From positions 445,036,001-445,100,000 of the forward strand of contig CM097882.1 of assembly GCA_044892505.1 (NCBI GenBank): a stretch of 64,000 bases of DNA. The letters run 5' to 3'. Under the pieces are notes generated by a model. It had not been told where the DNA came from and ran no database searches. It saw only the letters and a list, made by a program, of their open reading frames with translations. The stretch's first letter is position 1. Each line of letters begins with the position of its first letter. The position numbers were made by a program, and so were the translations under genes. The stretch is from Schmidtea nova. Its lineage: Eukaryota. This document shows positions 15,419 through 59,538 of the stretch, one piece after another.

Positions 15419-21453
<6,035 letters not shown>

Positions 21454-33799: not shown

Positions 33800-34563
33800 T
33801 GTTGGGTTATTATTCTGTAAGATCGGTTTACTGACCTGACTCCTCGTGCTCTTTAATTTTCGAAATCAATGAACCCAACACAGAACAATCTTTTTATTCG
33901 CGATCAACACAAATTACAGTTTTAGTTACACACACGTTTGATTAATTTACGCTTTCTTTCGATTCGGATTTGACTCTTTAATTCACAGGATGCTTTCTTA
34001 CTTTGTCTGTTTAGTCGTTTCAGGATCCTTTTCTATTCGCTTTCACAGTCTTTTTAATAATCTCTCTTTTGACTGTCCACTCGTCGGCCCGGTCCTCTGT
34101 TTTGCGCTGCCTTTTATAGTTCTCGCAAATAGCAATTAGGTTTTATCGATACCTAAAAGTTAATCAATTTCGGGTTTAATTGTCTTGCTGACAATTAATT
34201 TTGATTACCCTCGAATTGATTTTCCCTAATTGCCCCGACTTTGATCTCTCGGGTCTTTTGGCGCTCGGGCTTTCTTCATCGCTCGGGTTTCCCATTGCCT
34301 CGGGCTTCCCATTGTCTCGGGTTTCCCATTGAGCGATTAATTAATTTTAATTATTTTGTTTTTATTAAATAACTTTCTCTGGGGACCCCTTATTAAATTT
34401 CTATTATTATTTTTGGGTTCGTCTTTTGATTTGGTATTCAACCATACCCATTTCCCCCAGTGAATATTAATTTTACATTTTTGATAAATTTTAATTAATT
34501 TTTGCATTTTAATTTATTTCGATATTTCTTGTTACTTTTGTGATTTTTATACTAACCCCAACA
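33800..34563 (-). repeat. 3' LTR (764 bp)
   Basis: Near-identical to 49564-50327. I found only two differences (ttagtcg/ttaatcg and cccggtc/ccccgtc). Confidence 0.97.
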
Positions 34564-34580
34564 TATCTCACCCCTTTATT
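34564..34580 (-). promoter_or_regulatory. Polypurine tract
   Basis: The minus strand reads aaataaaggggtgagata immediately before the TGTTGGGG start of the 3' LTR. Confidence 0.75.
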
Positions 34581-35098
34581 TAAGATTCGTCCTCGAATCT
34601 ATTTTTCCATTTTTCTTGTTAACATGGTGGAGTCTACTCAATACTATAGATGTGCGTAATGATAATTGTTAATAAAAATTTTGATTATAAATAAGACGGT
34701 AGAGAAATCTCAATACCAAATATTATACAATTTAATATAATAATTTTGCCACTATTCTACTTCTGATAATATTAATATCAATAATAATTATACTTATAAT
34801 TGGTAACGATAATAGTAATAATAGTAACAATACTAACGATAATGATAATTTAATAATACTAATACTAATACTAATACTAATAACAACAAATATTATTAAT
34901 AATAATTTATTATAATCCTTTCATATTGATTATAATAACAATAATAATTAATTATAATAACTGTAATAATTATACTTATAACGATACTAATAACAATTGC
35001 AATAATGATAATAATGCTAATAATTCTAATATTAATGATATAAAAATTCTAATAATTCCAACAACAATGTTGTAATAATAATGATAATAATAATAATA

Positions 35099-35153
<55 letters not shown>

Positions 35154-35438
35154 GAATTCGAATAATAAATTGTTAACGATAAAGTAACAATAATTCATTT
35201 ATTTATTTATATTTTTATTTATTTTTTTTTTGCAATGGTCATATAATAATAATACTAACAATAAGTTGATAATTAATAGTTAATACNNNNNNNNNNNNNN
35301 NNNNNNNNNNNNNNNNNNNNNNNNNNNNNNNNNNNNNNNNNNNNNNNNNNNNNNNNNNNNNNNNNNNNNNNNNNNNNNNNNNNNNNNNNNNNNNNNNNNN
35401 NNNNNNNNNNNNNNNNNNNNNNNNNNNNTAATTGTTAA

Positions 35439-35771
35439 ATCGGCTTTGCCGATGTTTACTTTAAAATCGGCTTTGCCGATAATTATTTGTGTTACTTGTT
35501 TTAAATCGGCTTTGCCGATTATTATTTATTGCAAAAGCATCATCAAAATTGATATAGAACAATTTGTCAGCTCTCATAGAATCAAGCAGTGAAAATCATT
35601 CGATATCATTACCAACATTAAAATTTTTAAAACTGCATCTGATTGGATTTGAAAAGTTTTCATGTAATTAATTTTATTTCAATGATCGGCTTTGCCGATA
35701 ATTATTTGTTTTTCTTGTTTTAAATCGGCTTTGCCGATTATTATTTATTCCCTTTGATCGGCATAGCCGAA
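35439..35771. repeat. Array of six ATCGGC-NNN-GCCGAT palindromes
   Basis: Exact atcggctttgccgat at 35439, 35466, 35505, 35685 and 35724; variant atcggcatagccgaa at 35757. Confidence 0.9.
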
Positions 35772-36049
35772 AATAGAGTCAATGTTGGGTTGGGTGTTGA
35801 CTTGATATATAACCATCAGATAGAACTCATGCGATTGCAGATTGCAGTTTGATTTTTTTTTTTGATAATATTTTTGGTAACTTTGACGAAAATGATTTTA
35901 TGGCAAATCACATATTTCCGGTTGTTGTCTCTGATTGATTTTCATTACAAATCTTTCAATTTCTCTTTATGATTTTATAAAAAGGAACTTTGCAGCAGCA
36001 GAAGAGAAAAAGAAAATAGCTGCTCTGAAATGGTTTTCTATTCACATTT

Positions 36050-36420
36050 GGTTTCAATTGTTGGGCTATTTTTGGAATTGTGAAAAGGATCGATGGAAAA
36101 TTGGTATGTAGTCAATTTTTTTTTTTTTTTGTTAATTTTAGATTTACATAAATAATTTTGATTAATTTGATTAACTGTAGTGAGAAGATCTATAAACATT
36201 TTTAATGTTAATGATGATGATGATAATAATAATAAGTTTCAATTGTTGGAATATTTTTGGAATTGTGAAAAGGATCGATGGAAAATTGGTATGTAATCAA
36301 TTTTTATTTCTGTTAATTTTAGATTTGCATAAATAATTTTGATTAATTTGATTAACTGTAATGAGAAGATCTATAAACATTTTTAATATTAATGATGATG
36401 ATGATAATAATAAAAATAAA
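36050..36420. repeat. ~185-bp tandem duplication in the element's 3' region, amid (AAT)n tracts
   Basis: ggaattgtgaaaaggatcgatggaaaattggtatgt and gagaagatctataaacatttttaat each occur twice. Confidence 0.85.
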
Positions 36421-36421
36421 A

Positions 36422-36478
<57 letters not shown>

Positions 36479-37111
36479 CATGATAATACTACTAATATTT
36501 TGATAATGATATTAATAATAACAATTATTCTTTTAATAATAATAATTATAACAATATGTTCTCACTAATAATACAAATTTTTTTTTTGAACAAGNNNNNN
36601 NNNNNNNNNNNNNNNNNNNNNNNNNNNNNNNNNNNNNNNNNNNNNNNNNNNNNNNNNNNNNNNNNNNNNNNNNNNNNNNNNNNNNNNNNNNNNNNNNNNN
36701 NNNNNNNNNNNNNNNNNNNNNNNCGTAATAATACCAATAATTATTTATAACGTCTTTTATAATTGATCATAATATAAATGATAATGAATATACGTTACCC
36801 CTACTAATAATAATTATAACAATACTTTGATACTAATAATAATAATAATGAATTAATAATTATAATGATGATAATAACAATAATAATAATACTCTTAATA
36901 ATGTTTCTAACAATTTTTTTTTTTTTTTTTTTTTTTTTTTACTGACTATGATGTTAATGCTCTCGTATTGTATGAGGGTTATTTTTTATCATATTCATAA
37001 TTTCTATATTATTATTTTTTTGGTTTATTTAACTTATTTTGGGATGGGACGCCAATATCAAAGACAATAAAATATTTATTAATTAACTAAAATATATATA
37101 CATATATGTTT

Positions 37112-38578
37112 TTAGTCCAGTTTTAGTTCGATTTTTCCAACTTCACTTTTGTAACGGATAAATGTTTTTTCACGCTGGTAAATAATCCCATTTACCGTTA
37201 TGGTTTCACTTGCTTCTATTTGTGAATATTTTCTTTTTCTATTTTCAAGGTGGAGTATCGGTCCATTTTCATATGATATTGAAACTCTTGCGATAGACAA
37301 ACCGGTTATTACCTCAACGCTTTCTTCAATTGCCTCGAGATCATTTTCTGTTGCCAACTTCAATTCCGATTTCCCAATTTCCAAATCAACTTCCATATCC
37401 TCTGTCAAATCGATTTGCTCTGCCATTTTCTCAATTCCCACAGACAGGGCAATGGTTTTCGTAATTGCCGTGCTCGTCGTTGGCATTGTGTTTATGGTAT
37501 GAACTTTTCGATATTCCTCCAATGAATACTTCTTTGATGGGGTTGCTTTGGGAATTTGGATATCATCAATCCATGAATTTTCAATTTTTAAATATATTTT
37601 CCGAATGTTTTTGACATCTTCCAGGGCTGAATGGATGCGCACTTGCGTTTGTTCTCCAAGCCTTTGTTCAACCACAGTTTTCAGTTTGAAAAATTCACCT
37701 TTTCTCGATATCCCTTGCAACTGAAGTGCCTTTGCTGTGGACAAGTCTCGAATGCCATATAATTGATTTGTCCAAATTTTCAAATACTGGAGTTCTGCAT
37801 GCAAATCATGGCCAACCAATATTTTCCCAACAGTTAAATTCTGAATTTGTTTCATCTCCAAATATTGGTCGCATTGGTTCCTACTCGCAACCTCTGTTAT
37901 GCCATGTATTCTCGATTGGAAATGTCTCATTTTTCCTCTCGGCGTGAGGTATATATTTTTAATTATTTTCCCAAAATAATTCATAATGGCGATTGACAAT
38001 GGCACCATTTGTCCATTTTCTGATGTGCCGTATTCTGCGTCGATAAACAATATCCTGCTTCTTATTTCTTCTTGGTTTAATTCTTTTCGAATGAAGGATA
38101 ATCTTCTTTTCATCATATTTTCTGATATTGGTAGTAACGTTGGATCTGATGGCAATCCTGGCTCAGTTTGCGGAACTTCTTCTTTACTGTTTCTGAACCT
38201 TGTTTCCAGCGCGATTAGTGCGTCTTCATTTGCCGATCTAAGTTGCTTCTTTAATGCTTCCTCTCGCATTCTCCACGATGAGTCTTTGTGCATTTCCCAC
38301 CATATCCGCTGATTTTCGTCGATCATTTCCACTTTTCCTTTCAACACATGTAGTGTGACTTCTTCTTCATTCATTACTTTGCTATTTTCCATCAACTTTA
38401 CTCCTCCTTTTCTGCTTACTCTCAGGATTCTTGTTTTCATTCTTCTGTCATCGCTTCTTAAATAATTCGGTATTTTTGTATTTTCATTAATTTGGAATGG
38501 GCCTTGTCCCATATAGTTTCGATGCAGTTTGAGGTAGGCATCATAGATATTTGGTATCCACTGAATTTGTTCCATCAC
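37112..38578 (-). CDS. Element accessory ORF, 488 aa, with a REX4/ISG20-like DEDDh 3'-5' exonuclease domain (~37580-38060)
   Basis: ExoI ILFIDAEYG, then SIAIMNYFGKII, SRIHGIT, ExoII-like GKILVGHDLHAELQYL, IRDLS, and ExoIII IHSALEDVK (H-x4-D). Confidence 0.85.
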   Translation of the reverse strand: MMEQIQWIPNIYDAYLKLHRNYMGQGPFQINENTKIPNYLRSDDRRMKTRILRVSRKGGVKLMENSKVMNEEEVTLHVLKGKVEMIDENQRIWWEMHKDSSWRMREEALKKQLRSANEDALIALETRFRNSKEEVPQTEPGLPSDPTLLPISENMMKRRLSFIRKELNQEEIRSRILFIDAEYGTSENGQMVPLSIAIMNYFGKIIKNIYLTPRGKMRHFQSRIHGITEVASRNQCDQYLEMKQIQNLTVGKILVGHDLHAELQYLKIWTNQLYGIRDLSTAKALQLQGISRKGEFFKLKTVVEQRLGEQTQVRIHSALEDVKNIRKIYLKIENSWIDDIQIPKATPSKKYSLEEYRKVHTINTMPTTSTAITKTIALSVGIEKMAEQIDLTEDMEVDLEIGKSELKLATENDLEAIEESVEVITGLSIARVSISYENGPILHLENRKRKYSQIEASETITVNGIIYQREKTFIRYKSEVGKIELKLD

Positions 38579-38909
38579 TGAAATATTTATAATTTAAAAT
38601 TTTGTTTAATTTAAAAATTTGACGCTATCGCCAAGGTGGAATACCTTGAGTACCCCATCCTGGCTGATAACGGTATAAATAATAAATATTTAATAAAATT
38701 AATTACCTATTTAATTTTCAGTTTTATTCTAATTTATTAATTTAGGGATTCCCTTATATTTTTAATTTTATCTCTCTTCAACCAATCAAATCCGTTTCCG
38801 ATCGAAAGCGCAAATTTTACAATGAATCACATAAATATGGATAAAAGAAAGTTCATACTATTACCGTACAAATAAATTATTATAGTTGCATGCAAAATTA
38901 AATGTCTCA

Positions 38910-41900
38910 CTATACAAACGTTTCCTCGTAGACAATCCACGGTCTTGGTGTCCTGGATTGACGTACTGCATGATTGTTCATTTTTTGAAAGCAAATCAGT
39001 AGTGAGAGAAGAATAACAATGAGAAATGGTGTTGCACTAATAACAATAGTCGATAAAATAATACATGTTTTTGCATTGTCGTTAGATGAAGATGATAAGT
39101 TTTTCAGAATTGTCACATCATAGATATGAGAAGGAATGATTGTCGTTTGAAGTTTTTTTGTCATATTTTTATATACATAATTGTTTTTTGAATCATCGCT
39201 ATCAGTAATGTTATATGAAACTCGAACAAGTTTGTTTTCGACAAGAGTGATCTGCCATTGTTTGGAATGAGAAGTAAATCGATAATATTTGATTTTCATC
39301 ATAACAAATTTTGAATTCGATATAGATCTTAATCTTTGAAAATTTAAAATTTGATGTGAAATGTTACTTGTTAATATTGCCTGAATTTTCCCGCAATAAT
39401 GAATTTCGACTTTTTTATTAACTTCCGCTTGTCGGGATGCGTTTAATTTCTGATTTTTATATTCAAAGATGACTCGATTTGTTTCATTCACCAATGTCAC
39501 GGATTGTTGAGTGGAATAGATCTTGAACCATTGATTATCAATTTCAGTACCATTTTTCCGTAATGCTTTTTCGTAATAATGAATGACGAGATTATATGTT
39601 TTATGCAATTCTAAATTAACATAATGTACATAAGGTTTCTTGAGATTTAACGTATCGATCGTGTACTTTTCGAAAATAATTTTCACTTGTTGGGATTCAT
39701 GGGGTTCCCAATATACATTGATACCTTTTATTATTGGTTCTATTGATACTTTGCTATTTAATTTTTTTGTCCAAATTTCAATTTCAAATTGATGTTGTAT
39801 TTTTGTATTATTTTCTTGATATTGTTGTTGGGTTATTAACCAGGGATATTTGTAATTCATTGTTAAATCATGCGCAACGTACATATTGTTGTTAAAATTC
39901 AACTTTATTGGTGGATCAAAATAATTTAATAAATTATTTACTTTTATTTCGTCTCTTGGTTCACAATGATAGACCCATACCATTTGGGTACATGTTGCAT
40001 ATATATCAAATTTTTCTAAAAGTGGAACTCTTTTTATTGCATACATTGGAAAGATTTTAGTCGAATTTGTTCCCAAAACATTAATCATCATTACTGTTGC
40101 AATCAGTAATACTTTATTGATATATCCCAATGATGCGGAGTTTTTTGGATCCCTCTGCTTGCTGATCGTTTCATCTTGCGACTTTTTCTTTTTTGATCTT
40201 AGCTGATATTTATTGTCATCCATAACTGGCACTTTTTTGCATCTATTAGCATGAATGATAATTGTTCCGGCCTTTTTATTATTTTGTGGCCGTAGTTTTA
40301 AATTAGTTTCAGTGGTATCGCATACCAGATATGGTCCTTTAAATGGTCTTTGTAGCTTTGGTGATAAACCCTTAGCTGGCTCTGGTTTGTTTACATAAAC
40401 CAAATCTCCTATTTCAATACCGTGCGCATGCGCTCGTTTGTCATAACACTCTTTATAACTTTCCTGTTGATGTTTTATTTTGAGTCCTGCTTGAACCCAT
40501 ACTGACTGTAGTCTTTCTTGCATGACAACTTTATAGTTCGATACATCCATATATTGCGATATAGGTGCTTGAAATTTTAAATCTATTGGCATATTATTCC
40601 GTCGTAGATACATAAGATAGAAAGGTGTTTCGCCAGTACTTTCATTTACTGAATTTCGATATGCGAATAAACACGGTTTAATGAATAGATCCCAATCTTT
40701 TTGCTTTCTGTTTACGTAAGATGATATCATATTGATTAATGTTCCGTTGAACCTTTCAACTAACCCATCTGTTTGCGGATGGTACGGTGATGTACTGAGT
40801 TTCAATATTCCGAATAATTCCGTTATTGAATTAAATAATTCGCTTTGAAAGTTTGTTCCTTGATCTGTAAGTAACTTCTTTGGTGCTCCATATCGAAAGA
40901 TAATGTTTTCTACAAATATTTTTGCAACTGTTTCTGCCTTTTGATTCTGCATTGCATAGGCTTCTGGCCATTTAGTTAGATAATCGCAAAATACAACGAT
41001 ATACTTATTGCCATTAATTGTTTCCGGTAGTGGACCAACAATGTCCATTGCTGTCATTTCCATTGGAGCTCCTGGTACAGGCATAGGCTTTAATGGTACT
41101 TTTATTTTCCTTCCTGTATTTCGTCTGGTCAGGCACACTCCACAAGATTGACACCATTGTCTAACGTCTTGTTCCATGGTGTCCCAATAATATTTCAATT
41201 TCAACCTTGACAATGTTTTTCTAGCTGATAAATGTCCTCCTAACGCCCCGTCATGGTATATCAACAGTAATGCTTTTCGATGTTTTGTTGGAACAATAAT
41301 TAACAAGTTTTCATTTTTAACACATTTTAACAGACCGTCATGGATAATATATTTATGTTTTTCTTTAACTATGTGTTTCCAGTCGCTCTCTTTTTTGATA
41401 GTGACTGCATTTTTCCGTATTTGTTTTAATTCATCATCATTTTCTTGATCATATTGTAATTCTTTCATATTGTTTGCGGTTTTAATTGCCATAAATATTG
41501 TGTCATTATAATTTGTTTCATTCTGATTATTATAATTTTCTTCAGGAATTCTCGATAAGGTATCCGCATTTGCATTTGATTTACCTGTGCGACATTTAAT
41601 TTCAAAATCATATTCCTGTAGAGCGATTGACCATCTTATCAGCTTACTGGCTGAATCTCTATGCTTCATGAGCCATTGTAGTGGATTATGATCTGTAAAT
41701 ACAATAAATTTCCTACCAATTAGATATTGTCTGAACGTGGTTATTCCATAAACTAGTGCTAACGTCTCCTTTTCAATGGTAGAATAATTCTTTTCATGAG
41801 GTTTCAATGTTCTACTAGCATAGGCAATAACGTGATCTTTCTCGCCGTTAACCTTTTGTCCGAGTACGGCGCCTAATGCAAAATTACTTGCGTCAGTCAT

Positions 41901-44396
41901 TAAGATGAAAGGTATTTTAAAATTTGGGCATCTCAAAATCGGCTTTTTAATTAGACTTTCTTTGAGCAAATCAAATGCTTCTTGCTGAGCTTTTGTCCAT
42001 TTAAATTGAGCTTGTTTCTTTAATAGCATATTCAAAGGCTGTGCCACGTTTGAAAAACTTTTAATAAATTTTCTATAATAACTAGCTAATCCAAGAAATT
42101 GTCGAACTTGATCTACATCTTTCGGAATTGGGTAATTTTTAATTTTCTCTACATTTTCTGGGTTTGGTTGTAATCCATTGCGTGAAATAATATGACCAAC
42201 ATAAACTACTTCTGATTTCCCCCATTCGCATTTCGAGGGTTTTATTTTCAAATTTGCTTCTAATAATCGTTTGAATACTGTTTCTACATCCTTTAGGTGT
42301 TCCTGAAAACTACTTGAAAATATTATTATATCATCAATATAAACTAATGCATGTGGAATGTCACGCAAGACAAAATTCATACCTCTTTGGAACGTGGCTG
42401 GCGCTCCTGTTAAGCCGAATGGTAATACATTGAATTCATACAAACCTTTGCCGTCTGAAAATGCTGTTTTTCTTCTATCTTCTTCTTTTACTTTAAACTG
42501 ATTATATCCTTTATTTAGATCAATTACTGTGAAGAATTTCACTTCTCCCATCTGATCAAACATTTCTTGTGGAACTGGAATTGGATACGTATCTTTTCTT
42601 GTAACCTGATTTAATTTTCGGTAGTCAACACAAAATCTTAAATCACCGTCTTTCTTTTTGACAACGACTATTGATGATGAGAATGGTGATGAACTATCTC
42701 GTATTATTTTAAATTCTTTCATTGCTTTGATTTGTCGATCACTTTCTTCTTGATGTATATATGGAATTCTATACGGTCTTAATTTGATAGGTGTTTCGTC
42801 GAGTAGTGGTATCTCGTGTTCTATCACTTGAGTAAGTCCCAAATCATATTCGTGCCTTGCAAACACTTTATCGTATCTTCTCAGTAACGCCATAAATTCT
42901 CGTTTTTGTACCTCAGTTAAATCGTTGCTAACAACTTGTGGTTTTTTATAGATTTTAATGTTCCTCGGTAACTTTTGATCCTTTTCTGTTCTAAACTTTG
43001 TTAACCTTCCCAACTTTGTTTTGGGTTTCATTTGAATGGCTTTTGCGCTATGATTTGCTATTCTTACTGGTACTGTTTGATCCTTGATTTTTACTATCTC
43101 ATCACACATTGGAATATCATATTTTTCTACTAGCTTCTGATTTGGCTCAAATATACATTCGTCATCTGATGCACCTGTTACATTTGCATAACATATTACT
43201 TCGCTTCTCGCTGGCAATTCCATTGCTTGATTTAGAAAGACTTCTTTGTTTGCAATTTTACTGGGCTGTTCCTTTATTAATTTCCCTGTAGTTAAATCAA
43301 GAGCAATTCCTTGTAATTGCCGCATAACATCCATCCCAACTAAACATATTACGGGACTTTTTCTTATAACTGTTACATTATGCGTTATTTCTTTATCACC
43401 GATAGTTAATTTAGCTTCTAATTTCCCAATTACATCTAAACAGTTCTGCGACATTGATTTGATCTTTTTACTCGTTGGTTTCATATTTACTCTTTCTTTA
43501 CGCGTTAACATTTTGTCTGACACTATTGTGTGACTTGAACCTGAATCCAACAAGGCTTCGACCGTTCTTTCATTAAACTGTATGTTTATCCGAGGTTGTT
43601 TGGCTTCTCTCCCCATGGTCATCAGCGCATAACTACATGGTAGACCAAGCATGTTTTTCCGTTCAATTTCCGCACTTGTTGGCTCGATATTTTCTAATTC
43701 ACATTTGATATGATTTACCGGTTTCATTTCCTTTAATCTTTCACTTGGATACATAGGTGCTGTTGGCACAAATGCTGGTGTATACCATTTTGTAAGAGTA
43801 TCAATTCCACTCAGCTTTGGTATTGGTTCAAGTAAAAATGTTGATTCTGGCTTTATTTCGCTTCCGACTCTTCCTTTTTGAAAATATTTCGGTTCATTTT
43901 TATTCTTATCATTACCGTCATTCTTGTTATTATTTCTGTCACCAAATTCACATAAGGATTCTTCGCTCTTTTGATCGCTTTTCAATTGTGCTTTCACACT
44001 TGCCATTTCTTTATATTGATGATGTGTAATAAAAAATTTTGCCAAAAATGGAATGCAACTAATGATAATTTTCCATGACCATCCTGATATTACGTATATT
44101 CTATGAGCAGATAGCACTTGAGATATGATTACCTTTAACGTTACTGCGACCACATAAATTCCAATTAAACCAGCACATGCTTGTCCTAAGAACATAAACT
44201 TTCCCCAAATCTTTTCCATCGTTTTATACGTGGCTCTTTTGAAATGATCAGGTGTTAATAAATATTCATAATTTATTTTATCCTCTCCATTTGGTAGTAT
44301 GGTGTCAATCATTTCTGAGATTATTCTCTCTTTCTTTGAAGGGAATAATAAATTTCTTTGGGCTTCTTCAATATCATCACTTGCATAAAACCCCAT
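38910..44396 (-). CDS. Env C-terminus/TM, aspartic protease, RT, RNase H, integrase, then a second type-I membrane protein (1828 aa frame)
   Basis: WGKFMFLGQACAGLIG TM; LLDSGSS; RFCVDYRKLN, LPFGLTGAP, VYIDDII; MTDASNFALGAVL; H..GGH..C..C, DIVGPLP, TDQG, GLVERFN, FKGPY; hydrophobic VLLIATVMMINVLG and CIILSTIVISATPFLIVILLSLLICF. Confidence 0.95.
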   Translation of the reverse strand: MGFYASDDIEEAQRNLLFPSKKERIISEMIDTILPNGEDKINYEYLLTPDHFKRATYKTMEKIWGKFMFLGQACAGLIGIYVVAVTLKVIISQVLSAHRIYVISGWSWKIIISCIPFLAKFFITHHQYKEMASVKAQLKSDQKSEESLCEFGDRNNNKNDGNDKNKNEPKYFQKGRVGSEIKPESTFLLEPIPKLSGIDTLTKWYTPAFVPTAPMYPSERLKEMKPVNHIKCELENIEPTSAEIERKNMLGLPCSYALMTMGREAKQPRINIQFNERTVEALLDSGSSHTIVSDKMLTRKERVNMKPTSKKIKSMSQNCLDVIGKLEAKLTIGDKEITHNVTVIRKSPVICLVGMDVMRQLQGIALDLTTGKLIKEQPSKIANKEVFLNQAMELPARSEVICYANVTGASDDECIFEPNQKLVEKYDIPMCDEIVKIKDQTVPVRIANHSAKAIQMKPKTKLGRLTKFRTEKDQKLPRNIKIYKKPQVVSNDLTEVQKREFMALLRRYDKVFARHEYDLGLTQVIEHEIPLLDETPIKLRPYRIPYIHQEESDRQIKAMKEFKIIRDSSSPFSSSIVVVKKKDGDLRFCVDYRKLNQVTRKDTYPIPVPQEMFDQMGEVKFFTVIDLNKGYNQFKVKEEDRRKTAFSDGKGLYEFNVLPFGLTGAPATFQRGMNFVLRDIPHALVYIDDIIIFSSSFQEHLKDVETVFKRLLEANLKIKPSKCEWGKSEVVYVGHIISRNGLQPNPENVEKIKNYPIPKDVDQVRQFLGLASYYRKFIKSFSNVAQPLNMLLKKQAQFKWTKAQQEAFDLLKESLIKKPILRCPNFKIPFILMTDASNFALGAVLGQKVNGEKDHVIAYASRTLKPHEKNYSTIEKETLALVYGITTFRQYLIGRKFIVFTDHNPLQWLMKHRDSASKLIRWSIALQEYDFEIKCRTGKSNANADTLSRIPEENYNNQNETNYNDTIFMAIKTANNMKELQYDQENDDELKQIRKNAVTIKKESDWKHIVKEKHKYIIHDGLLKCVKNENLLIIVPTKHRKALLLIYHDGALGGHLSARKTLSRLKLKYYWDTMEQDVRQWCQSCGVCLTRRNTGRKIKVPLKPMPVPGAPMEMTAMDIVGPLPETINGNKYIVVFCDYLTKWPEAYAMQNQKAETVAKIFVENIIFRYGAPKKLLTDQGTNFQSELFNSITELFGILKLSTSPYHPQTDGLVERFNGTLINMISSYVNRKQKDWDLFIKPCLFAYRNSVNESTGETPFYLMYLRRNNMPIDLKFQAPISQYMDVSNYKVVMQERLQSVWVQAGLKIKHQQESYKECYDKRAHAHGIEIGDLVYVNKPEPAKGLSPKLQRPFKGPYLVCDTTETNLKLRPQNNKKAGTIIIHANRCKKVPVMDDNKYQLRSKKKKSQDETISKQRDPKNSASLGYINKVLLIATVMMINVLGTNSTKIFPMYAIKRVPLLEKFDIYATCTQMVWVYHCEPRDEIKVNNLLNYFDPPIKLNFNNNMYVAHDLTMNYKYPWLITQQQYQENNTKIQHQFEIEIWTKKLNSKVSIEPIIKGINVYWEPHESQQVKIIFEKYTIDTLNLKKPYVHYVNLELHKTYNLVIHYYEKALRKNGTEIDNQWFKIYSTQQSVTLVNETNRVIFEYKNQKLNASRQAEVNKKVEIHYCGKIQAILTSNISHQILNFQRLRSISNSKFVMMKIKYYRFTSHSKQWQITLVENKLVRVSYNITDSDDSKNNYVYKNMTKKLQTTIIPSHIYDVTILKNLSSSSNDNAKTCIILSTIVISATPFLIVILLSLLICFQKMNNHAVRQSRTPRPWIVYEETFV

Positions 44397-45460
44397 TTGG
44401 GCAATTTTTTTAATGATGTAAAATTTACCAAGTATTCTAGAGTGATCAATTCTAATTTATCCGGCGTTTTTACTCCTCGGTAATCTGGTAACGCAATCCA
44501 ATGATCTGGTGCTAATCGGTATAACGGAGCAAGTAATCTATTGCATTGAAGAACCTTTGGTTTAACGTGCTCCTCCAATAGTATCCTAGTTATTGGTTCC
44601 ATAAACCGCATTTTTCCGTTCATGCTCACTGGTAATTCGTTTGTGCACTTTTCATATTTCATTATTTTTACTGTTACCTCTTTACATCTGTAGCTATACA
44701 AAGCTTCTCCAAATATCCTAGCAAATACTCCATTTTCTGATATCAACATAGGCGCAACTAAATTTGGGTTTGTAATTACCATTGCCATTCGATTTCGAAG
44801 TATCTCTTTATTTAATTTACAATCATTAAGGATCATTTCTCGATATATATTCTCCATGATGTTCTGGCTAAAATGAAACAAAAAATCAATTTTATTATTA
44901 AAATAGTGAGTTAATTTAATCTCTGTCGAATGTATTCTCGTTTTAGCTTCGTGCACCATCATTTTGGATACATAAACGCCTTTATAATTTGTTGCATATA
45001 CCATTTGACCGCATTTACTGGTGATATCCTTTTTTATGAAGCGCATGCTATCCGTTGGCATGGTCGACATCAAAACCGTTGCCGTTTTCTTCATCCATAT
45101 CGGCGTTGATCTAATTGTTATATTTGGGGCATAATTATTATTAAAATTGTCTGGTCGTTCTCGAAACTGTTCTCCACTCAATTCTTTGAAATTCATAGTT
45201 TTTAAGTGCGCTAAATTACATTCCTGGGTTTTGACATTATACACAAGAATGGACTCTCCTGTTTGGCAATTGGTTTGTTTCATGTTACAAAACGGATGTG
45301 TCTGTAATTTCCCCGTATCATCATCAAAAGCTCCTTCAAATTCTCTCAATTCCGTTAAATATTCCTCTATTACTACAGACTGTTTGATTATCTTCCCATC
45401 TACTTTGTATGGTTCTCCTTCACAATCTCCATCTTGTTTCATTACTCCTTTTACGACCAC
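44321..45460 (-). CDS. Middle part of a chuvirus-like glycoprotein ectodomain; in frame with the upstream ORF after a single TAA
   Basis: Cys-rich pattern GDCEGEPY, FCNMKQTNC, CGQMVYATNY, LNDCKLNKEILRN.L, GEALYSYRCKEV, CTNELPV, RFMEPITRIL, CNRLLAP.Y..DHW. Confidence 0.8.
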   Translation of the reverse strand: MVVKGVMKQDGDCEGEPYKVDGKIIKQSVVIEEYLTELREFEGAFDDDTGKLQTHPFCNMKQTNCQTGESILVYNVKTQECNLAHLKTMNFKELSGEQFRERPDNFNNNYAPNITIRSTPIWMKKTATVLMSTMPTDSMRFIKKDITSKCGQMVYATNYKGVYVSKMMVHEAKTRIHSTEIKLTHYFNNKIDFLFHFSQNIMENIYREMILNDCKLNKEILRNRMAMVITNPNLVAPMLISENGVFARIFGEALYSYRCKEVTVKIMKYEKCTNELPVSMNGKMRFMEPITRILLEEHVKPKVLQCNRLLAPLYRLAPDHWIALPDYRGVKTPDKLELITLEYLVNFTSLKKLPKWGFMQVMILKKPKEIYYSLQRKRE

Positions 45461-45463
45461 TGT

Positions 45464-48400
45464 TTATCTAATTCTATGATTTCGCTTTGCTTTTAATTTA
45501 ATTTCCGAATTTATTTTTAATTCTCCTGTTTGAAAAGCAGCGAGGCAATTTTCCGGCATTACTTCCACTGGCCGTGGGATTGTATACATTTTTATCATTG
45601 AAGTATGGCTCCACTTGCCACAGTAAAATATAAAGGAAGTGCGCTTAACTATACATTCTCTTACTGTTGTTCGTCGTAAGTCAGATTCTTGATATACATG
45701 ATATTTCACATCATTTTCTATCTTTAATTTTCTTGGATATGCGTCTGAACACTCTGCCATATCTACAACTGAATAAATTTTCCCCATTTCTGTTTTTGAA
45801 CAGTCATACGCTGTCATACTCGTTACCTGTGTGATTCCAGCACATAAAATAATTATCATAAAGATTGCCCAAGGAAACATTATTGTCTTCCTCTTTTCTG
45901 GACTAACTCTGACATTTAGCGATTTTTGAGGTAAACTTTCTTTATTACTTTCGTTTTCATTTATTATAAACATTTTCATCAACTTGTCCCAACCTCCAAT
46001 CTTTTTAACCCAGCTCATTAAGTATTCGTTTATATTTCGAGCAGCAGTATCTATTAAATTTTCTAACTCATCTGATTTCATGATCTTATGAGCACCAATT
46101 TCCAAAATTACATAAGCTAAGCTCATTAATGTTACTTCTGTAGTAATTCCATTTCTAGTTAATTTCTCGATTACATCTTTGTCACAAAATCTTTCATTTT
46201 TACCAAACCTTTGCATGATGCTAGGGAGTCTGTTTCTCACTTCATTTACTATGCCTCCCAATTCATATTTTTCATCTACCTCCATTTCACACATTGGGTA
46301 TACTGCTTTAGTCAAGCCTTTTAATAATGCTTTGGTTTTATCTACTTCCTGTTCCAATCGCACAAGACCTTTCTTTATTTCATATAAAGTTCTCGGCTTC
46401 TTAGTATTAATTTCATTATTCATTTCGCCTTTAAGCTCCGCCAATTCTTGCACTTTTGTTAATTTATACTCATTTTTGTTATTCTTTTTGGTTTCCTCAT
46501 CATCCTTTATTACTTCGTTTATTTCTTTGATTTCTTTAACCTCATTTTCATCATCATTTTCTCTGTCTGTATTTGATCCATCAGATTTGTCTATTAATTC
46601 AAATTTCTGTTCCTTAATCACTGTTACACAATTTATCAAATATCCATTTCCACTATCGGAACGTAAATATCCATTTTCATCTAACTCTTGTGGCACAAAT
46701 CCACAATCAAATAAATATTCATCATCATCTAATTCTTCTCCTTTAAACATAAATATAATAATTCCATCTTTTCCTATTCTTTCAGCAGCTCTTTTTCTTA
46801 ATTTCCGAACTTTTGTGCACCAATGCTCTACTATATATTCAGTTTTACCATAATCTTCGTAATCTAATGCTATTGTAAACGGATTCAATTCTATTGTAGT
46901 TTTTCTAAGTTTTTTGCCTAATTGTCGTACTAAATTTCTTAAATTTTCTCTATATTTTGATTTTTCATACATGTATGGCCTTATTGTATCTATAATATCT
47001 AATTTACTATCTCTCTCAATTTCAATTTCTTCTATCAATCTTAATTTTCTAATAATTTCATTTGCATCCCCTTTACACAAAATATCCTTTAATTCCCTAC
47101 AAATTTTCTGTGATTCATCTTTTATTATTTCATTGTTTCTATTCATAAATACTATCTGTACTCTGTTTTTATTCTCAGGTGTAATACCACAATCTATTAA
47201 TATTTCCTCGTCATTTAAACATCTATTTTTAAATTTTACTTCCTTTATCCATTTTCCACTATTTTCCTCTAATCTCTTTTTAAATTCCTTTACGCACTCT
47301 CCTATTTCACAACGAATACACATCACATCATTATTACTTTCATCAACAACATCAATAACAATAAAATCTAACCATGTTTTCTCTCTGAACAATTTTCCAA
47401 ATATTTTCATTATTTTCTCAGTTTCAGTTTTATCTTTTGAATTCTCATTATTATAATCAGCACACATTTCAATTACAGTTTTTAATTTTTGTATACTCAT
47501 CGGCATTTGACTCAATTTCTTTAGCATTGTCATTATTTTTGACGTCTCTTTTACTTTTGCCTCCATTAAAACTTTTGTTCTCGACAAAATCATTTTTATT
47601 TTTTCTGTTTCTAATTCATCATTTACTACTTCCTTCATTATATCTGTCTCTGACCCTTCTGATTGCGATTCATACATCATATGATTATCAGCTTCTTCGT
47701 CTGATTCAAATTTACACATTAATTGATCCAATCGTTTACCCATTTGCTTTATCTCTTTTTCAATTCTTTCGTTAGCATCATCGGGTTGTACAAAAGCCAC
47801 ATTATCAAATTTTGATTTATCATTTTGAAATCTGATTTTCTTTAATATAGGTCTTTGAAATTTTCCATTATTCTTTGGGCATGATCTAGCCATGTGTCCA
47901 TATCCTCTGCATGAGTGACATTGAATTTGTCCTTGGAGATTCACTCTATCTCTCTGTGGTGATGGTGATGTTGACGGAGATCTCGATCTTGCAAAGCAAT
48001 TTCGTGAAGAATGGCCTTTCCTTCCACAATTATAACACTGCATATTATCACTAGCTCTTTGATCATTGTTGCCCCTTCTCTTGAAGGTTTTCTCGACATT
48101 GTCTTTCAACCAATCTGGCCACATCTTTCTTGGACTCCGTTGCGAATTATTTTTAAACCAACATTGACTATTACTGTGCCCTTTTCGTTGGCAATTATCA
48201 CACTGAACAGGACTTGGGCTTCTTCGAGCGCTGTTTTTAAACCAACATTGATTTACTTGATGTCCCAATCTTTTACAATAACTACATTGAATTGGCCTTT
48301 CTCTCTCTTCATTTGGGCTGTTTGACGACTTTCTTGGCTCGAATTTCACTCTGAACTTTGGTGATGGACTAGTTGATTTTTGCAAAAGAGTCTCTCTAAC

Positions 48401-49066
48401 TGGAGTTACCGATTCATCTCTCGTTTCATTTACAATTGCAAAGGATTCTGTTGTCTGTTGTGTGGTTTTGAGATTCAATTCAATCTTCATGGCCTTTTTA
48501 ATCAATTCATCGAAATTGTTGAAATCTACATAACACAGTGCTTTTTTGATCTCTCTTTTTACTCCTGACAGAAATTGATCTTGTAGTAATTCTTTCACTT
48601 GTTTCGTCACATCCGGTTGTTCTGGTTTCGCTTCAAAGGCTTTTTCTGCAAGAGTTGTTAAATGATAAGCGAACTCACTTACCGATTCATTTGACTTTTG
48701 TACTCGGTTGTAAAATTTTTGGCGCATTATTCTTTTGATATCGCCACCGATTAACTTGGCTGCCAATGCATCTTTTAGCTTTGTCCAATCATTTGCGATA
48801 AGTCTTTTGTCGATCTGTTGCCAAGCTTCTCGTGCTGCACCTTTCAAATATAATGGCAACCTTTGTACCATAATTGATTGGCTCCATCCGTATGCTGTCG
48901 CGTACATATAGTAATCTGCCATGAAATCAACAAAATCAATTGGGTCTCCTCCGTATTGCTCTACTGGCAATTTCTGACAACTTGCAAAATCACTACCATT
49001 GTTTGTGGGAGTAGTAGACATGGGTATTTGATCATTATTATTTGAATTACTAGCCATATTTTCCAC
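45464..49066 (-). CDS. Gag (capsid-like region plus 4 CCHC knuckles), 2 ubiquitin-like domains, Bcl-2-like domain, TM/signal peptide and Env N-terminus (1200 aa)
   Basis: YGGDP..F...Y...A..YGW..LPLYLKGAAREAW (retrotransposon gag); four Cx2Cx4Hx4C; FKNRCLNDEEILIDCGI and FKGEELDDDEYLFDCGF; LMSWVKKIGGWDKLMKMF; PWAIFMIIILCAGITQVTS-MTAYDC. Confidence 0.92.
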   Translation of the reverse strand: MENMASNSNNNDQIPMSTTPTNNGSDFASCQKLPVEQYGGDPIDFVDFMADYYMYATAYGWSQSIMVQRLPLYLKGAAREAWQQIDKRLIANDWTKLKDALAAKLIGGDIKRIMRQKFYNRVQKSNESVSEFAYHLTTLAEKAFEAKPEQPDVTKQVKELLQDQFLSGVKREIKKALCYVDFNNFDELIKKAMKIELNLKTTQQTTESFAIVNETRDESVTPVRETLLQKSTSPSPKFRVKFEPRKSSNSPNEERERPIQCSYCKRLGHQVNQCWFKNSARRSPSPVQCDNCQRKGHSNSQCWFKNNSQRSPRKMWPDWLKDNVEKTFKRRGNNDQRASDNMQCYNCGRKGHSSRNCFARSRSPSTSPSPQRDRVNLQGQIQCHSCRGYGHMARSCPKNNGKFQRPILKKIRFQNDKSKFDNVAFVQPDDANERIEKEIKQMGKRLDQLMCKFESDEEADNHMMYESQSEGSETDIMKEVVNDELETEKIKMILSRTKVLMEAKVKETSKIMTMLKKLSQMPMSIQKLKTVIEMCADYNNENSKDKTETEKIMKIFGKLFREKTWLDFIVIDVVDESNNDVMCIRCEIGECVKEFKKRLEENSGKWIKEVKFKNRCLNDEEILIDCGITPENKNRVQIVFMNRNNEIIKDESQKICRELKDILCKGDANEIIRKLRLIEEIEIERDSKLDIIDTIRPYMYEKSKYRENLRNLVRQLGKKLRKTTIELNPFTIALDYEDYGKTEYIVEHWCTKVRKLRKRAAERIGKDGIIIFMFKGEELDDDEYLFDCGFVPQELDENGYLRSDSGNGYLINCVTVIKEQKFELIDKSDGSNTDRENDDENEVKEIKEINEVIKDDEETKKNNKNEYKLTKVQELAELKGEMNNEINTKKPRTLYEIKKGLVRLEQEVDKTKALLKGLTKAVYPMCEMEVDEKYELGGIVNEVRNRLPSIMQRFGKNERFCDKDVIEKLTRNGITTEVTLMSLAYVILEIGAHKIMKSDELENLIDTAARNINEYLMSWVKKIGGWDKLMKMFIINENESNKESLPQKSLNVRVSPEKRKTIMFPWAIFMIIILCAGITQVTSMTAYDCSKTEMGKIYSVVDMAECSDAYPRKLKIENDVKYHVYQESDLRRTTVRECIVKRTSFIFYCGKWSHTSMIKMYTIPRPVEVMPENCLAAFQTGELKINSEIKLKAKRNHRIR

Positions 49067-49542
49067 TTGTTTCTTATTTCGAAGATTATAAGATTTCTTT
49101 TGTACAACTTTTTCTCGTCTAAATTTTAAAATATTACAATTTTTAATTTTACCTTTTGTTTTAATTTTGACTTGATTTTTGGCAATTGGATTTTATCGAT
49201 TCTTTCTTTTCTGTTCAAGCTTTTTACTCTTTTATTTCAACTGATACAATTTATTTTCACTCTTTTTTTTTTTCAACAATTAATCTCGTTTTGTTTAGTT
49301 TTCTAACTTTAATTTCTCTTTTTACAATTATTCGATTTTACTTTTCAACAATTTTCTCTCTGATTTTATTCAATTATGTCGATTAATATCGTTTTCTTTA
49401 TTTATCAAATTCAATTTTCTATAGCAATTTATCTCTCCTTTTCTGTGATTCACTCCTTCACCGACCTTTAGATCACGTCGGTTATTATCGTAACAATTTT
49501 TCAACTATTCAATATTTTCACTATGCTCTCACCGACCCTCGA

Positions 49543-49560
49543 ATCACGTCGGGCTCACCA
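49543..49560 (-). promoter_or_regulatory. Primer-binding site, tRNA-Trp type
   Basis: The minus strand reads TGGTGAGCCCGACGTGAT, 3 nt inside the 5' LTR. It differs by one base from the avian retrovirus tRNA-Trp PBS TGGTGACCCCGACGTGAT. Confidence 0.85.
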
Positions 49561-49563
49561 AAA

Positions 49564-50327
49564 TGTTGGGTTATTATTCTGTAAGATCGGTTTACTGACC
49601 TGACTCCTCGTGCTCTTTAATTTTCGAAATCAATGAACCCAACACAGAACAATCTTTTTATTCGCGATCAACACAAATTACAGTTTTAGTTACACACACG
49701 TTTGATTAATTTACGCTTTCTTTCGATTCGGATTTGACTCTTTAATTCACAGGATGCTTTCTTACTTTGTCTGTTTAATCGTTTCAGGATCCTTTTCTAT
49801 TCGCTTTCACAGTCTTTTTAATAATCTCTCTTTTGACTGTCCACTCGTCGGCCCCGTCCTCTGTTTTGCGCTGCCTTTTATAGTTCTCGCAAATAGCAAT
49901 TAGGTTTTATCGATACCTAAAAGTTAATCAATTTCGGGTTTAATTGTCTTGCTGACAATTAATTTTGATTACCCTCGAATTGATTTTCCCTAATTGCCCC
50001 GACTTTGATCTCTCGGGTCTTTTGGCGCTCGGGCTTTCTTCATCGCTCGGGTTTCCCATTGCCTCGGGCTTCCCATTGTCTCGGGTTTCCCATTGAGCGA
50101 TTAATTAATTTTAATTATTTTGTTTTTATTAAATAACTTTCTCTGGGGACCCCTTATTAAATTTCTATTATTATTTTTGGGTTCGTCTTTTGATTTGGTA
50201 TTCAACCATACCCATTTCCCCCAGTGAATATTAATTTTACATTTTTGATAAATTTTAATTAATTTTTGCATTTTAATTTATTTCGATATTTCTTGTTACT
50301 TTTGTGATTTTTATACTAACCCCAACA
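49564..50327 (-). repeat. 5' LTR (764 bp) with TATA (TATAAAAG, 49875-49882), AATAAA (49657-49662) and ~18-bp U3 repeats (~50010-50095)
   Basis: Matches 33800-34563; motifs read on the minus strand. Confidence 0.97.
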
Positions 50328-51073
50328 ATATACATTTTTTTGAATTCAAATTTTTATATTTTAAGATTTTATATATTAATCGTAAATTTTTTCTATGAAA
50401 TTTCGAATTTGGAATTTTATAAAATGATAAAAATTTTTATATAATAACAATATTTTCGATTTGTAATTTTCATGGGTTTCAATATAATTTTTGATTTACA
50501 AACTCTTAGGAAAATTTTTGGTTTACAATTTTTTCATTATAAATTTTTCGCAATATAATAAAAAGTAAATTTTTATTTTTTATGATCAAAAACGAAATCT
50601 AAATAATAATAAATTTTTATCCACGAATTTCGCAATCCAAATAAGAATTCAATCTAAAAATTCTATATACTAAATAAAAATACAAGTAAAATAAATTGTA
50701 AATTTTTTCAAAGAATGGTTTTCGACATCAGGTAAGGTGAATTTCGGTTTCGTTCGAGCATGAATTTCCCAACCAAAGTACGCGCGAATTTTTCGAGACA
50801 CTTCACTTAGGAACTTCAGGCTCCCGAAAACAAGGTTCACTGGAGAAAATTATTTAGATAATGAATGAGGTTTAATTCAGATCAATCAATACTTGTCTTC
50901 ATAATTCGTTTCATTTCGTGATCATTATATCAGCTTTGAGCATTATATCAAACGATTCTCTTTTCAATGTTAACTTTTTATTCTACTTGTGTTTTCGGAT
51001 AAGATGGTAATTGTTGTGAGAGTGAAGGCGAATGACGGGTAACATATTCTTGTACAGTTAAATTATATAATGG

Positions 51074-51948
51074 TGCTGGGGTTGTTATAATCACAGAAAA
51101 TAAATTTAAAATTGCACAAATCAATAAAAATACAAAAAATTGGAAAAATAATAATTAATGTTCAAACATTAATTAAAAATTTACAAAAAATTAAAATAAA
51201 GTTTGAGCGGGGGAAACTGGTATGGGAGGATGCCAAACGACGAGACGAATTCGAATATGGGCATATAAAAATAAAAAGAAGCGCACAGAAGGAAATAATT
51301 AGAAAATACAAATTAATTAAAATAATTAAGTATTCTATAGGAAGCCCGAGCTAGTGGGAAACCCGAGCTAATGGGAGACCCGAGCTAATGGGAAACCCGA
51401 GCTAGTAGGAGATCCGAGCGATGTGGGAAACCCGGGGCATCAGCGAGGTCATTAAACTATCAAATTAAATTGAATGCCCCGGGGAGAGCCGGAAAAACCA
51501 TTAACGGCAAAGATCCAGTTACGACCATGCAGGGCTGATCAGATCCAATTACAACAGAGTGGACTCGATAGTATCCAATTACACCGACAGAATGGCAACA
51601 CAAAGATGGTATAAAAACGGAGAGCAAAGTGCCAAAATTGCCAGTTGGTCGAAGATAAAATTTAGGCGTAAAGTGAATCTCAAACCGTTAGAAGATATTT
51701 GGAGGAGACGTTGAAAGGAAATCAAAAGTAGAATTTAAACTTAATCTTTTACGCACCAGAGAGGGAGATATCCCATTGGGTGTTCTACCCTCACGCGAAG
51801 AGTGCAGAGCCTGAGTAACTTTTTGTGATAAAAAGAGTTGTGATCATTTGAAAAATAAAGAAAGTTATTGTGTTGGGTTTTGTTTATTTTGTAATTGAAA
51901 GAGAACACAGGAGTCAGAAACTACCGACTCAACACTAATAACCCAACA
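51074..51948 (+). mobile_element. Solo LTR (875 bp) of a related subfamily, in the opposite orientation
   Basis: TG(C)TGGGG...AATAACCCAACA termini homologous to the main LTR, ATGG TSD (51070-51073, 51949-51952), 18-bp gggaaacccgagc repeats, and TATAAAA at ~51610. Confidence 0.88.
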
Positions 51949-53889: not shown

Positions 53890-56015
53890 TATTAGCCACA
53901 GCACTACGGGTATTAATTGAATCCATAAGACAAATTATAATAACACGTTTATTAATTAAAAATCCCAATCTTATTAAAACAAATTATAACGATAATTTGT
54001 TTGAGGAGTTTTTAAAAATAATAATTAATGTATAAGTAAGGATTTCAACATACAATCAAACACGCGCAGCATCATACCAATATATTTTAATTCAAATTAC
54101 AAAAACGCCTCACATTCCCCCTTTTTTAAAATTCTTTAACCACTCAATATTTCTCGTGACGACACTTCCATTTTCCAATTTTATTTCATAACTTCGATCA
54201 TAAATCTTTTTAGTAATTACACCTGAACCCATATATCTATTATCACCTTTATTTTGAACATTTACTTTGATCAACACGCAATCTCCAATTTGAAATTCAC
54301 GATTTATCGTCTGATTGATTTTTTCTTCTTCCAAAATTTCTGAGAACCATTCACTAAAGATCTTTTTCCCAAACACCATTTCAGCTGGAGTCTTTCTAAT
54401 AGTTTTTTGAAAAGTTGAATTCATCATAAACTGTACTTCGGGAAGAACATCTACCCATGATTTATGTCTTTTATCTTTGAGTGTTATCTGTATTGCATCT
54501 CTAATTGTACGGAATTGTCTCTCAATCTGTCCATTTGCTGAATGATGATATGGACTTGAATAATTAATTTCAATATTGTGGAATTCTGCAAAATCTTTCA
54601 TTAGCTTTGATTCAAATAATTTACCTATGTCACAGTTTATTATCCTTGGTGCTCCAAACTTCATTATCCACTCTTCTTTCAGTAATCTTACCACTGTATT
54701 TTCATCTTGCGATTTTGCTGCATGTAAAGAAATAAATTTACTATGATGATCTATATTCCCAAGAATATATCTTTCTCCTCTCATTGCAAGTTGTAATGGA
54801 CCACAAAAATCTACATAGATTTTTTCAAATTATTTCGAATCACTTTTGCAAATTATTTCTTCTTTTGTTTTAGTTGTATCAACCTTTCTTTTCTGGCAGT
54901 TTTCACAGGCTTGTACAACATTACGAATAGATTGCTCCAAATCTTTCATATGAAAATTATTTGATACATATATTTTTACTTTTTAAGCACCCGCGTGACA
55001 GAGCTTTTTATGATATTCTATGATGAATTTGAACTTGTTTTCTTCTGGAATCCAAATTTTATTATTATTGGTCATAATCGCTCCGTTGACATATTTAAAA
55101 AATGTTTTATCTGGCATCATACTAATATTTTCTTTTATATTTTCAATTTCTTTTGAGTTCTTTTGCCATTTATTTTCAATATTTTCAGTCATCAGTGTCA
55201 ACAATCTTGTTTTTAATTTACCCATTTTAGGATTTTCATGAATCATTTGACATTGAACACATGTCTCACATTCTTTTCTAGATAGAGCGTCGGCATTATT
55301 GTGGTTATCACTTTTTCTGTATTGAATCTCCATGTCCAGACCACTAAGATGGTTAATCCAAGTTTGAAATTGCGGAGTAATAGCTTTCTTTGTCTTCATC
55401 ATAAATGTAATGGCTTTGTGATCCGTTCTCAAAATAAACTTTTTACCATATAAATAATGCTTAAAATGAACAGTAAAATAAAATATAGATAATAATTCCT
55501 TTCTTGTTATACAATAGCCTAATTCGTGTTTATTCATAGCTCGGGATCCATATGCGATTACTCTTTCTTTATTTCCATCTTTTTGAGATAGAACAGCACC
55601 GATGCAGTCAAAACTTGCATCTGTATCCAAAATGAATGGTTTAGAAAAATCTGGAAACTTCAATAATGGTGTAGACGTTAATTTTAGTTTTAAATTTTGA
55701 AATGAAGTTTCACACTCATCAGTCCACATAAGCTTCTTTTGTTTACTTCCACATAACGCTTCTAATACTTTGGAATTTTTGGTGTAATTCTCTATAAATC
55801 TGCGATAGTAATTTGCCAGGCCTAAAAACCCTCTCAAGCTTTTACGCATTTAGGTCTTTCAAAATTTTTAATAGTTTCAATCTTGCTTTCATCCGTACGT
55901 ATTCCATTTTCACTAATGATATGACCCAAAAATTTTACTTCTTTCCTTTTGAATTGACATTTTGCTGGACTTATTTTAAGATTTGCTAATTTAATCATTT
56001 GAAAAACCTTTTCAA
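53890..56015 (-). mobile_element. 5'-truncated Ty3/gypsy element (RT end, RNase H, integrase, PPT, 3' LTR start), inactivated
   Basis: KCQFKRKEVKFLGHII, LRGFLGLANYYR, LDTDASFDCIGAVL, RTDHKA, VDFCGPL, ANGQIER. PPT aaaaaaggggggaa at 54115-54128 is followed by TGTGAGG at 54114. Frameshift at ~55850 and stops at 54983 and ~54830. The far LTR end is not resolved. Confidence 0.88.
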
Positions 56016-59532: not shown

Positions 59533-59538
59533 AGGTGC

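Follow-up and report, generated by a model that had tools for sequence, protein, structure and literature searches.

A chuvirus-type class III glycoprotein within the predicted gag-env-pol polyprotein of a young, high-copy Ty3/gypsy element of Schmidtea nova

Retroelements that place an envelope glycoprotein gene (env) in frame between gag and pol are already on record in flatworms. Arkhipova and Yushenova described this order in the planarian Burro elements in 2019 (PMC6431247), and Chary and Hayashi have reported GAG-ENV-POL Ty3/gypsy elements with glycoprotein B (gB)-type envs in nematodes, bryozoans and flatworms, including six in Schmidtea mediterranea, as well as a Pao-associated glycoprotein beside gypsy pol in 114 elements (PMC13524379). 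According to the latter paper, it is unknown how these gB-type envs of retroelements attach to cells and enter them. Here we consider a long terminal repeat (LTR) element from Schmidtea nova, which lies in a 64,000-nucleotide stretch of contig CM097882.1 (GenBank assembly GCA_044892505.1, positions 445,036,001 to 445,100,000, forward strand; hereafter the window, to whose first letter all positions are counted). Very probably, its glycoprotein segment is the env of a young, high-copy Ty3/gypsy element of the compact, Burro-like GAG-ENV-POL kind, whose intact copies are predicted to make a single polyprotein that threads the membrane, with env fusing membranes so that the element can spread between cells.

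The element occupies 33800-50327 on the minus strand (16.5 kb; Table 1), and its two LTRs are 99.7% identical. Its coding order is gag, two ubiquitin-like repeats, a Bcl-2-like domain, a hydrophobic segment, env and its membrane anchor, protease (PR), reverse transcriptase (RT), RNase H (RH), integrase (IN) and a post-integrase domain, with an exonuclease open reading frame (ORF) standing apart. Env is thus located 5' of the protease, as the original prediction had it, and is not a separate gene. The backbone is Ty3/gypsy, not BEL/Pao, again in agreement with that prediction: TG...CA LTRs, a target-site duplication, a tRNA primer-binding site, a polypurine tract, the PR-RT-RH-IN order and a GPY/F motif after the integrase core are all present, and against the Protein Data Bank (PDB) the RT-RH region matches Ty3 RT with 292 bits (E 6e-86), compared with 107 bits for foamy virus RT and 47 bits for HIV RT. 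A control BEL RT of the same genome has no PDB match at E 0.01, and the element's RT-RH scores 31-35 bits against each of 12 BEL/Pao loci of this genome (12/12). In a small RT tree, built with one BEL family and without named gypsy references, the element stands apart from the in-genome BEL RTs with support of 100/99. Neither Pao-type Peptidase_A17 nor DUF1758/1759 was found by Pfam in the element's ORFs at E 1; a lone DUF1759 match over the Bcl-2-like stretch (E 0.099) lies far under the cut-off.

What kind of glycoprotein does the element carry? The motifs named in the original prediction lie where it had placed them, on the minus strand: MTAYDC (45800-45817), YCGKWSHTS (45599-45625), GDCEGEPY (45407-45430), LNDC (44819-44830), CTNELPV (44627-44647), FMEPITRIL (44579-44605) and GFY (44385-44393). 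The residues of its dotted patterns GEALYSYRC.V, GFY...D..FP and WGKF..LG..AG.IG are also present, but their spacing was abbreviated and they do not match literally. The methionine of MTAYDC is internal and not a start codon; it follows the hydrophobic segment at 45830-45886 in a frame that is open from gag. In the window copy, env falls into three pieces in different frames, divided by an in-frame stop and a frameshift, and each piece matches the Pfam family PF24664, Monjiviricetes_fusion (58, 125 and 77 bits, with a cut-off of 27 bits); jointly, the pieces span positions 5-646 of the 653 in the model. In the same genome, an unbroken natural copy (L007) matches this family with 284 bits (E 2.7e-84).

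An AlphaFold2 model of L007 env, a predicted monomer based on a 104-row alignment, has 451 of its 763 residues at a predicted local distance difference test (pLDDT) score of at least 90. The best match of this model in BFVD is the chuvirus glycoprotein (G) of Tacheng tick virus 4 (E 9e-41), and the best in the PDB is herpesvirus gB (Foldseek E 2e-14; VIA Z 10.2, root-mean-square deviation 7.5, 396 residues aligned). By sequence, env has no meaningful match in the PDB; in other words, the gB likeness is visible in the fold only. Fourteen ectodomain cysteines are at least 90% conserved among the 104 sequences. Family profile, predicted gB/G-like fold and cysteines together identify env as a member of the chuvirus-type (Monjiviricetes) class III glycoprotein family, which sustains the family assignment of the original prediction. 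The chuvirus/Monjiviricetes glycoproteins (Tacheng tick virus 4, Lishi spider virus 1) and herpesvirus gB share this class III fusogen family, its cysteine pattern and the predicted fold, but the chuvirus proteins are stand-alone, of ∼650 aa, 22-28% identical to the element's env and outside the group of retroelement polyproteins. The mosquito element Anakin (Dezordi et al., PMC7642597), with its chuvirus-derived glycoprotein, likewise carries this family in an LTR element; its backbone, however, is BEL/Pao, whereas the RT described here is Ty3-like and far from the BEL RTs of its own genome.

In its intact form the family encodes one polyprotein; the window copy, although young, is damaged and as it stands is unable to make env or pol. 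We scored at least 108 genomic copies (a lower bound that includes the window copy) with 97-100% amino acid identity. In 22 of these 108, by hand count, the frame is open for at least 3,400 codons, and in intact copies this single ∼3,400-codon frame runs from gag through the post-integrase domain. The whole 4.1 kb around env is open in 15 of 30 fetched loci, and the exonuclease ORF is without an internal stop in 82 of 88 scored copies.

Selection was assessed with 14 fetched stretches from diverged relatives, i.e. sister families, in the same genome. The whole order from the Bcl-2-like domain to the exonuclease is kept in 11 of these stretches, and in four of the 14 a single open frame reaches from a point ahead of the Bcl-2-like domain to the end of the post-integrase domain. 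Identity to the element family is 87-96% for RT, 83-91% for IN and 74-85% for env, then 51-71% for the exonuclease core, 23-55% for the Bcl-2-like domain and ∼50% for the post-integrase domain (27% in the most distant family). In the comparisons that allowed it to be computed, the ratio of nonsynonymous to synonymous divergence (dN/dS), in which dS is rough because synonymous sites are close to saturation, is 0.027-0.051 for env, 0.018-0.026 for RT and 0.025-0.039 for IN, as against 0.085-0.20 for the Bcl-2-like domain and 0.16-0.22 for the post-integrase domain (0.51 versus the most distant family); for the exonuclease, synonymous sites are saturated and the proportion of nonsynonymous differences (pN) is 0.17-0.34. 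Purifying selection on env between sister families is strong, nearly as tight as that on integrase. Since its dN/dS is low and the layout is common to the sister families, env is no passenger but a long-standing component of the element that is held under constraint, and the gag-env-pol layout itself is old because it is shared by families with saturated synonymous sites.

A sequence search with env returned 1,374 representatives at E 0.001. The best relatives are retroelement polyproteins (28-44% identity), which outside this genome carry gag and env, or env and PR-RT, within one protein; next come the stand-alone proteins (∼650 aa, 22-28%), two of which are named chuvirus glycoproteins, from Tacheng tick virus 4 (E 1.8e-39, 28%) and Lishi spider virus 1 (E 5.9e-36). 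In a FastTree phylogeny of 119 rows (36 of 154 proteins were dropped as short or partial), 16 polyprotein envs and one fragment group together with Shimodaira–Hasegawa-like (SH-like) support of 98, apart from the two named chuvirus glycoproteins; this grouping arises partly by construction, because the rows are the query's own best matches. As the tree is midpoint-rooted and without named Pao envs, it does not give the donor of env. One protein counted as stand-alone by a length rule (P0003) is a fragment with a Bcl-2-like motif at its start. We also observed that in four outside relatives (P0005, P0006, P0009 and P0010) env is followed by between two and four aspartic-protease domains in tandem, in one case with ankyrin repeats as well, and that P0070 is a direct fusion of a glycoprotein of the stand-alone type with RNase H of the gypsy type. 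The env-PR-RT-RH-IN polyprotein P0011, of the kind described here, is labelled as a protein of a Flavobacteriaceae metagenome-assembled genome and is likely animal DNA binned with a bacterium.

Among the described elements, Smed_errantivirus_1 and Smed_errantivirus_2 of S. mediterranea are similar in their GAG-ENV-POL order, gB-type env, multiple copies (45 and 215 listed) and span of ∼14.8 kb (PMC13524379). Env domains I-II of Smed_errantivirus_1 are ∼82% identical to those of the window copy (206/251, hand count), which is the distance of the sister families within the S. nova genome; nonetheless, the two Smed elements belong to a different family in another genome, and the published table lists no primer-binding site for them, whereas the window element has a clear 22-nt site matching tRNA-Trp. 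The words 'Bcl', 'exonuclease', 'accessory' and 'polyprotein' do not occur in the main text of that paper.

The likeness to Burro (PMC6431247) lies in the position of env, which shares one ORF with gag and pol and sits in frame between them, and this likeness may extend to the cargo. Burro elements have BCL2-like and Ubi/SUMO-like domains before env, for which the window element has consistent sub-threshold sequence matches. The Bcl-2-like stretch, a BH1-BH2 part, matches at E 0.0013, and seven of eight family members match as well (best E 1.7e-5), all below the Pfam threshold; in a two-domain model in which the Bcl-2 region has low pLDDT, no Bcl-2 structure appeared among 50 VIA rows and the listed Foldseek rows. 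The two tandem repeats upstream (internal repeat E 6e-9) each hold a likely, if weakly supported, ubiquitin-like domain: a profile of the region finds ISG15 as its best PDB match (E 0.013), with ubiquitin-like chains occupying the top rows, while atlas leads for the repeats score under 0.9 and a single-sequence PDB search with the region gave chance matches only. The differences from Burro are in scale and content. Burro1 exceeds 30 kb with an ORF of 4,873-5,140 aa, whereas the window element has 16.5 kb, 764-bp LTRs and a frame of ∼3,400 aa, and it shows no Pfam match to the BIR, ankyrin, MATH or dUTPase cargo of the Burro1 type. On size and cargo, then, the element is Burro-like and not Burro1. 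Moreover, a post-integrase membrane domain and an exonuclease go unmentioned in the section of PMC6431247 on Burro1-4/GYPSM1, and the window element has both.

The post-integrase domain is a predicted second surface or membrane glycoprotein. It contains nine N-glycan sequons in 335 aa, several of them conserved in sister families, compared with eight in the 1,171 aa of the pol region, a density in line with a luminal placement. The domain has no Pfam match and its profile none in the PDB at E 10; its fold prediction is poor (pLDDT 30.7), and none of the atlas leads, which point to fibronectin-III and cytokine-receptor-like proteins, reaches 0.9, recognition being low. Right before the stop codon, the polyprotein has E-[S/T]-x-[V/L] in each of the 11 complete rows (window 38913-38924; L101-L107, L111, L113 and L114), including a family with 24% identity, and we take this tail to fit a class I PDZ-binding motif.

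Downstream, the 487-aa ORF likely encodes an RNA-trimming enzyme, an ISG20-type DEDDh exonuclease. Its profile matches ISG20L2 at E 4e-23, and its motifs are FIDAE, GHDLHAEL (with Glu where ISG20L2 has Asp) and HSALED. In nine of 13 rows for elements of this type, a sequence TTTYAG stands at most 8 nt upstream of the exonuclease ATG; this suggests splicing of the message, and the enzyme is likely translated from spliced RNA. Bdelloid rotifer LTR elements (Rodriguez et al., PMC5408684) also have a DEDD exonuclease, in an ORF of its own 3' of pol, but the rotifer ORF3 enzyme is DEDDy, whereas the one in this env-bearing element is DEDDh and ISG20-like. For neither the post-integrase glycoprotein nor the exonuclease did we find a description in the literature on flatworm elements, although supplements and Repbase entries may hold one.

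How might such a polyprotein work? We propose that Gag, the ubiquitin-like repeats and the Bcl-2-like domain would stay in the cytosol, that the hydrophobic segment before env would send the ectodomain into the lumen of the endoplasmic reticulum (ER), and that the env anchor would bring PR-RT-RH-IN back to the cytosol. The third and fourth hydrophobic segments would likewise place the post-integrase glycoprotein in the lumen. Signal peptidase and the element's protease may then release the parts, and env trimers could let particles enter neighbouring or germ-line/stem cells. Several points weigh against this picture of a fusing, spreading element. The topology comes from a simple hydropathy scan, and the element family is known here from sequence and predicted fold. 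The env stretch of L007 contains no furin-type R-x-K/R-R site, and its ectodomain has just two N-glycan sequons. With a single polyprotein, Gag, Env and Pol would be made in equal amounts, an unusual arrangement, unless splicing comes into play, and the near-saturation of synonymous sites, noted above, blurs the estimates of selection. A bolder form of the proposal is that the compact elements are two-glycoprotein enveloped flatworm viruses: the polyprotein would cross the ER membrane four times, the PDZ-tailed post-integrase glycoprotein would be an attachment or host-modulating partner of the gB-like fusogen, and the exonuclease, Bcl-2-like and ubiquitin-like cargo would counter host RNA defence and cell death. 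We offer this extension tentatively and regard it as rather doubtful.

Does the locus instead record a chuvirus glycoprotein that a gypsy element captured recently and independently, with a new gene order as the outcome? An independent capture with a new order is what the original prediction held, and there is something to be said for it: named chuvirus glycoproteins are among the stand-alone matches, a chuvirus glycoprotein tops the viral fold search, and the GAG-ENV-POL elements are not one clade in the published POL tree, so several origins of the order are possible (PMC13524379). The novelty of the gene order is nevertheless refuted by the gag-env-pol elements already published (PMC6431247, PMC13524379). 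Nor does the claim of independent capture find backing in the env tree, which is without a true root or a named Pao env: the nearest relatives are all retroelement polyproteins and form one group to which the stand-alone proteins do not belong. The layout is shared by sister families whose synonymous sites are saturated and is hence old, and we judge a recent capture to be very unlikely.

If env is an old part of the element, it might still serve something other than infection, for example by anchoring assembly at ER membranes or by fusing intracellular vesicles, with the element spreading within the cell only. Lying within the polyprotein, env would hold Gag and Pol at a membrane regardless of what its ectodomain does, and fusion data are absent for these elements according to the discussion in PMC13524379. 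Yet conservation of the ectodomain in full, of its cysteines and of the predicted class III fold is nearly as tight as that of integrase, beyond what a tether needs, and this alternative seems to us improbable. The remaining idea, that the glycoprotein is a passenger, either a chuvirus fragment in a single copy or a decaying relic, draws on the stop and frameshift in the window env; it is refuted by the many open copies, the layout of the sister families and the strong purifying selection between them, and with the frameshift absent from 28 of 29 other loci, we give it almost no credence. An env that functions in membrane fusion thus remains our preferred reading.

Table 1. Features of the S. 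nova element, listed in coding order from the 5' LTR (window positions)
Feature	Position	Strand	Remarks
Target-site duplication	50328..50331; second copy 33796-33799	.	4 bp
5' LTR	49564..50327	-	764 bp; TG...CA ends; 2 mismatches versus 3' LTR
Primer-binding site	49539..49560	-	22 nt; matches 3' end of tRNA-Trp(CCA)
gag	47879..49057	-	capsid domain (Retrotrans_gag); four CCHC knuckles; inferred Met of the polyprotein 49055-49057
Tandem repeats, two	46613..47692	-	each with a likely ubiquitin-like domain (weak)
Bcl-2-like domain, BH1-BH2 part	45989..46180	-	below Pfam cut-off
Hydrophobic segment before env	45830..45886	-	predicted internal signal sequence (hydropathy)
Class III fusion glycoprotein (env), predicted	43887..45865	-	PF24664 span; window copy broken by stop 45464-45466 and frameshift near 44,405
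Env membrane anchor, predicted	44103..44198	-	
Aspartic protease	43308..43601	-	LDSG
Reverse transcriptase and RNase H	41610..42662	-	YIDD; Ty3-like
Integrase	40293..41294	-	H2C2 finger, core and GPY motif
Post-integrase domain	38910..40130	-	polyprotein frame; predicted signal 40074-40130; ∼335 aa; predicted anchor 38991-39047; tail ending E-T-F-V
Splice-acceptor-like TTTCAG	38578..38583	-	2 nt before exonuclease ATG
Exonuclease ORF	37112..38575	-	separate ORF, 487 aa; ISG20-like DEDDh exonuclease domain 37562-38065
Polypurine tract	34564..34581	-	
3' LTR	33800..34563	-	

The surroundings of the element offer further observations. An imperfect second sequence resembling the primer-binding site lies at 49460-49481, ∼60 nt downstream of the primer site, and 51355-51415 has an inverted 75-80% likeness to part of the LTR and is probably the remnant of a related LTR in the opposite orientation. 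The 3' pattern of tRNA-Trp has 1,984 exact matches, on one strand only, at G000:C3 ∼128.02-128.07 Mb and beyond (L115-L122); the 100 matches listed form a tandem array with a period of ∼282 bp in which ARAGORN calls tRNA-Trp(CCA) genes, and the arrayed tRNA is the primer tRNA of the element family. Elsewhere in the window, a second, unrelated element of the gypsy type is represented by pieces of its RNase H and integrase at 54113-55849 (minus strand), and 57451-64000 (plus strand) holds a non-LTR retroelement whose RT is preceded by a Ulp1/C48 protease domain (59533-60282) and which we take to resemble NeSL-type elements. Pieces of a host kinesin gene, with a pogo/Tigger-type DDE transposase (8108-9560, minus strand) among them, and a KDM5-type demethylase gene (ARID, PHD, JmjC) lie at 1895-14988 and 16320-21034.

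For the group of gB-type flatworm elements, the env at this locus is an ordinary feature, and its description adds one family to a published kind. Some value is added by a second predicted surface glycoprotein and an ISG20-like exonuclease, for which no published description was found in the sources available, and by the selection on env, which among old sister families comes close in strength to that on integrase and supports real use of the fusogen. This high-copy family is a tractable place to ask how the gB-type envs of retroelements attach and enter.

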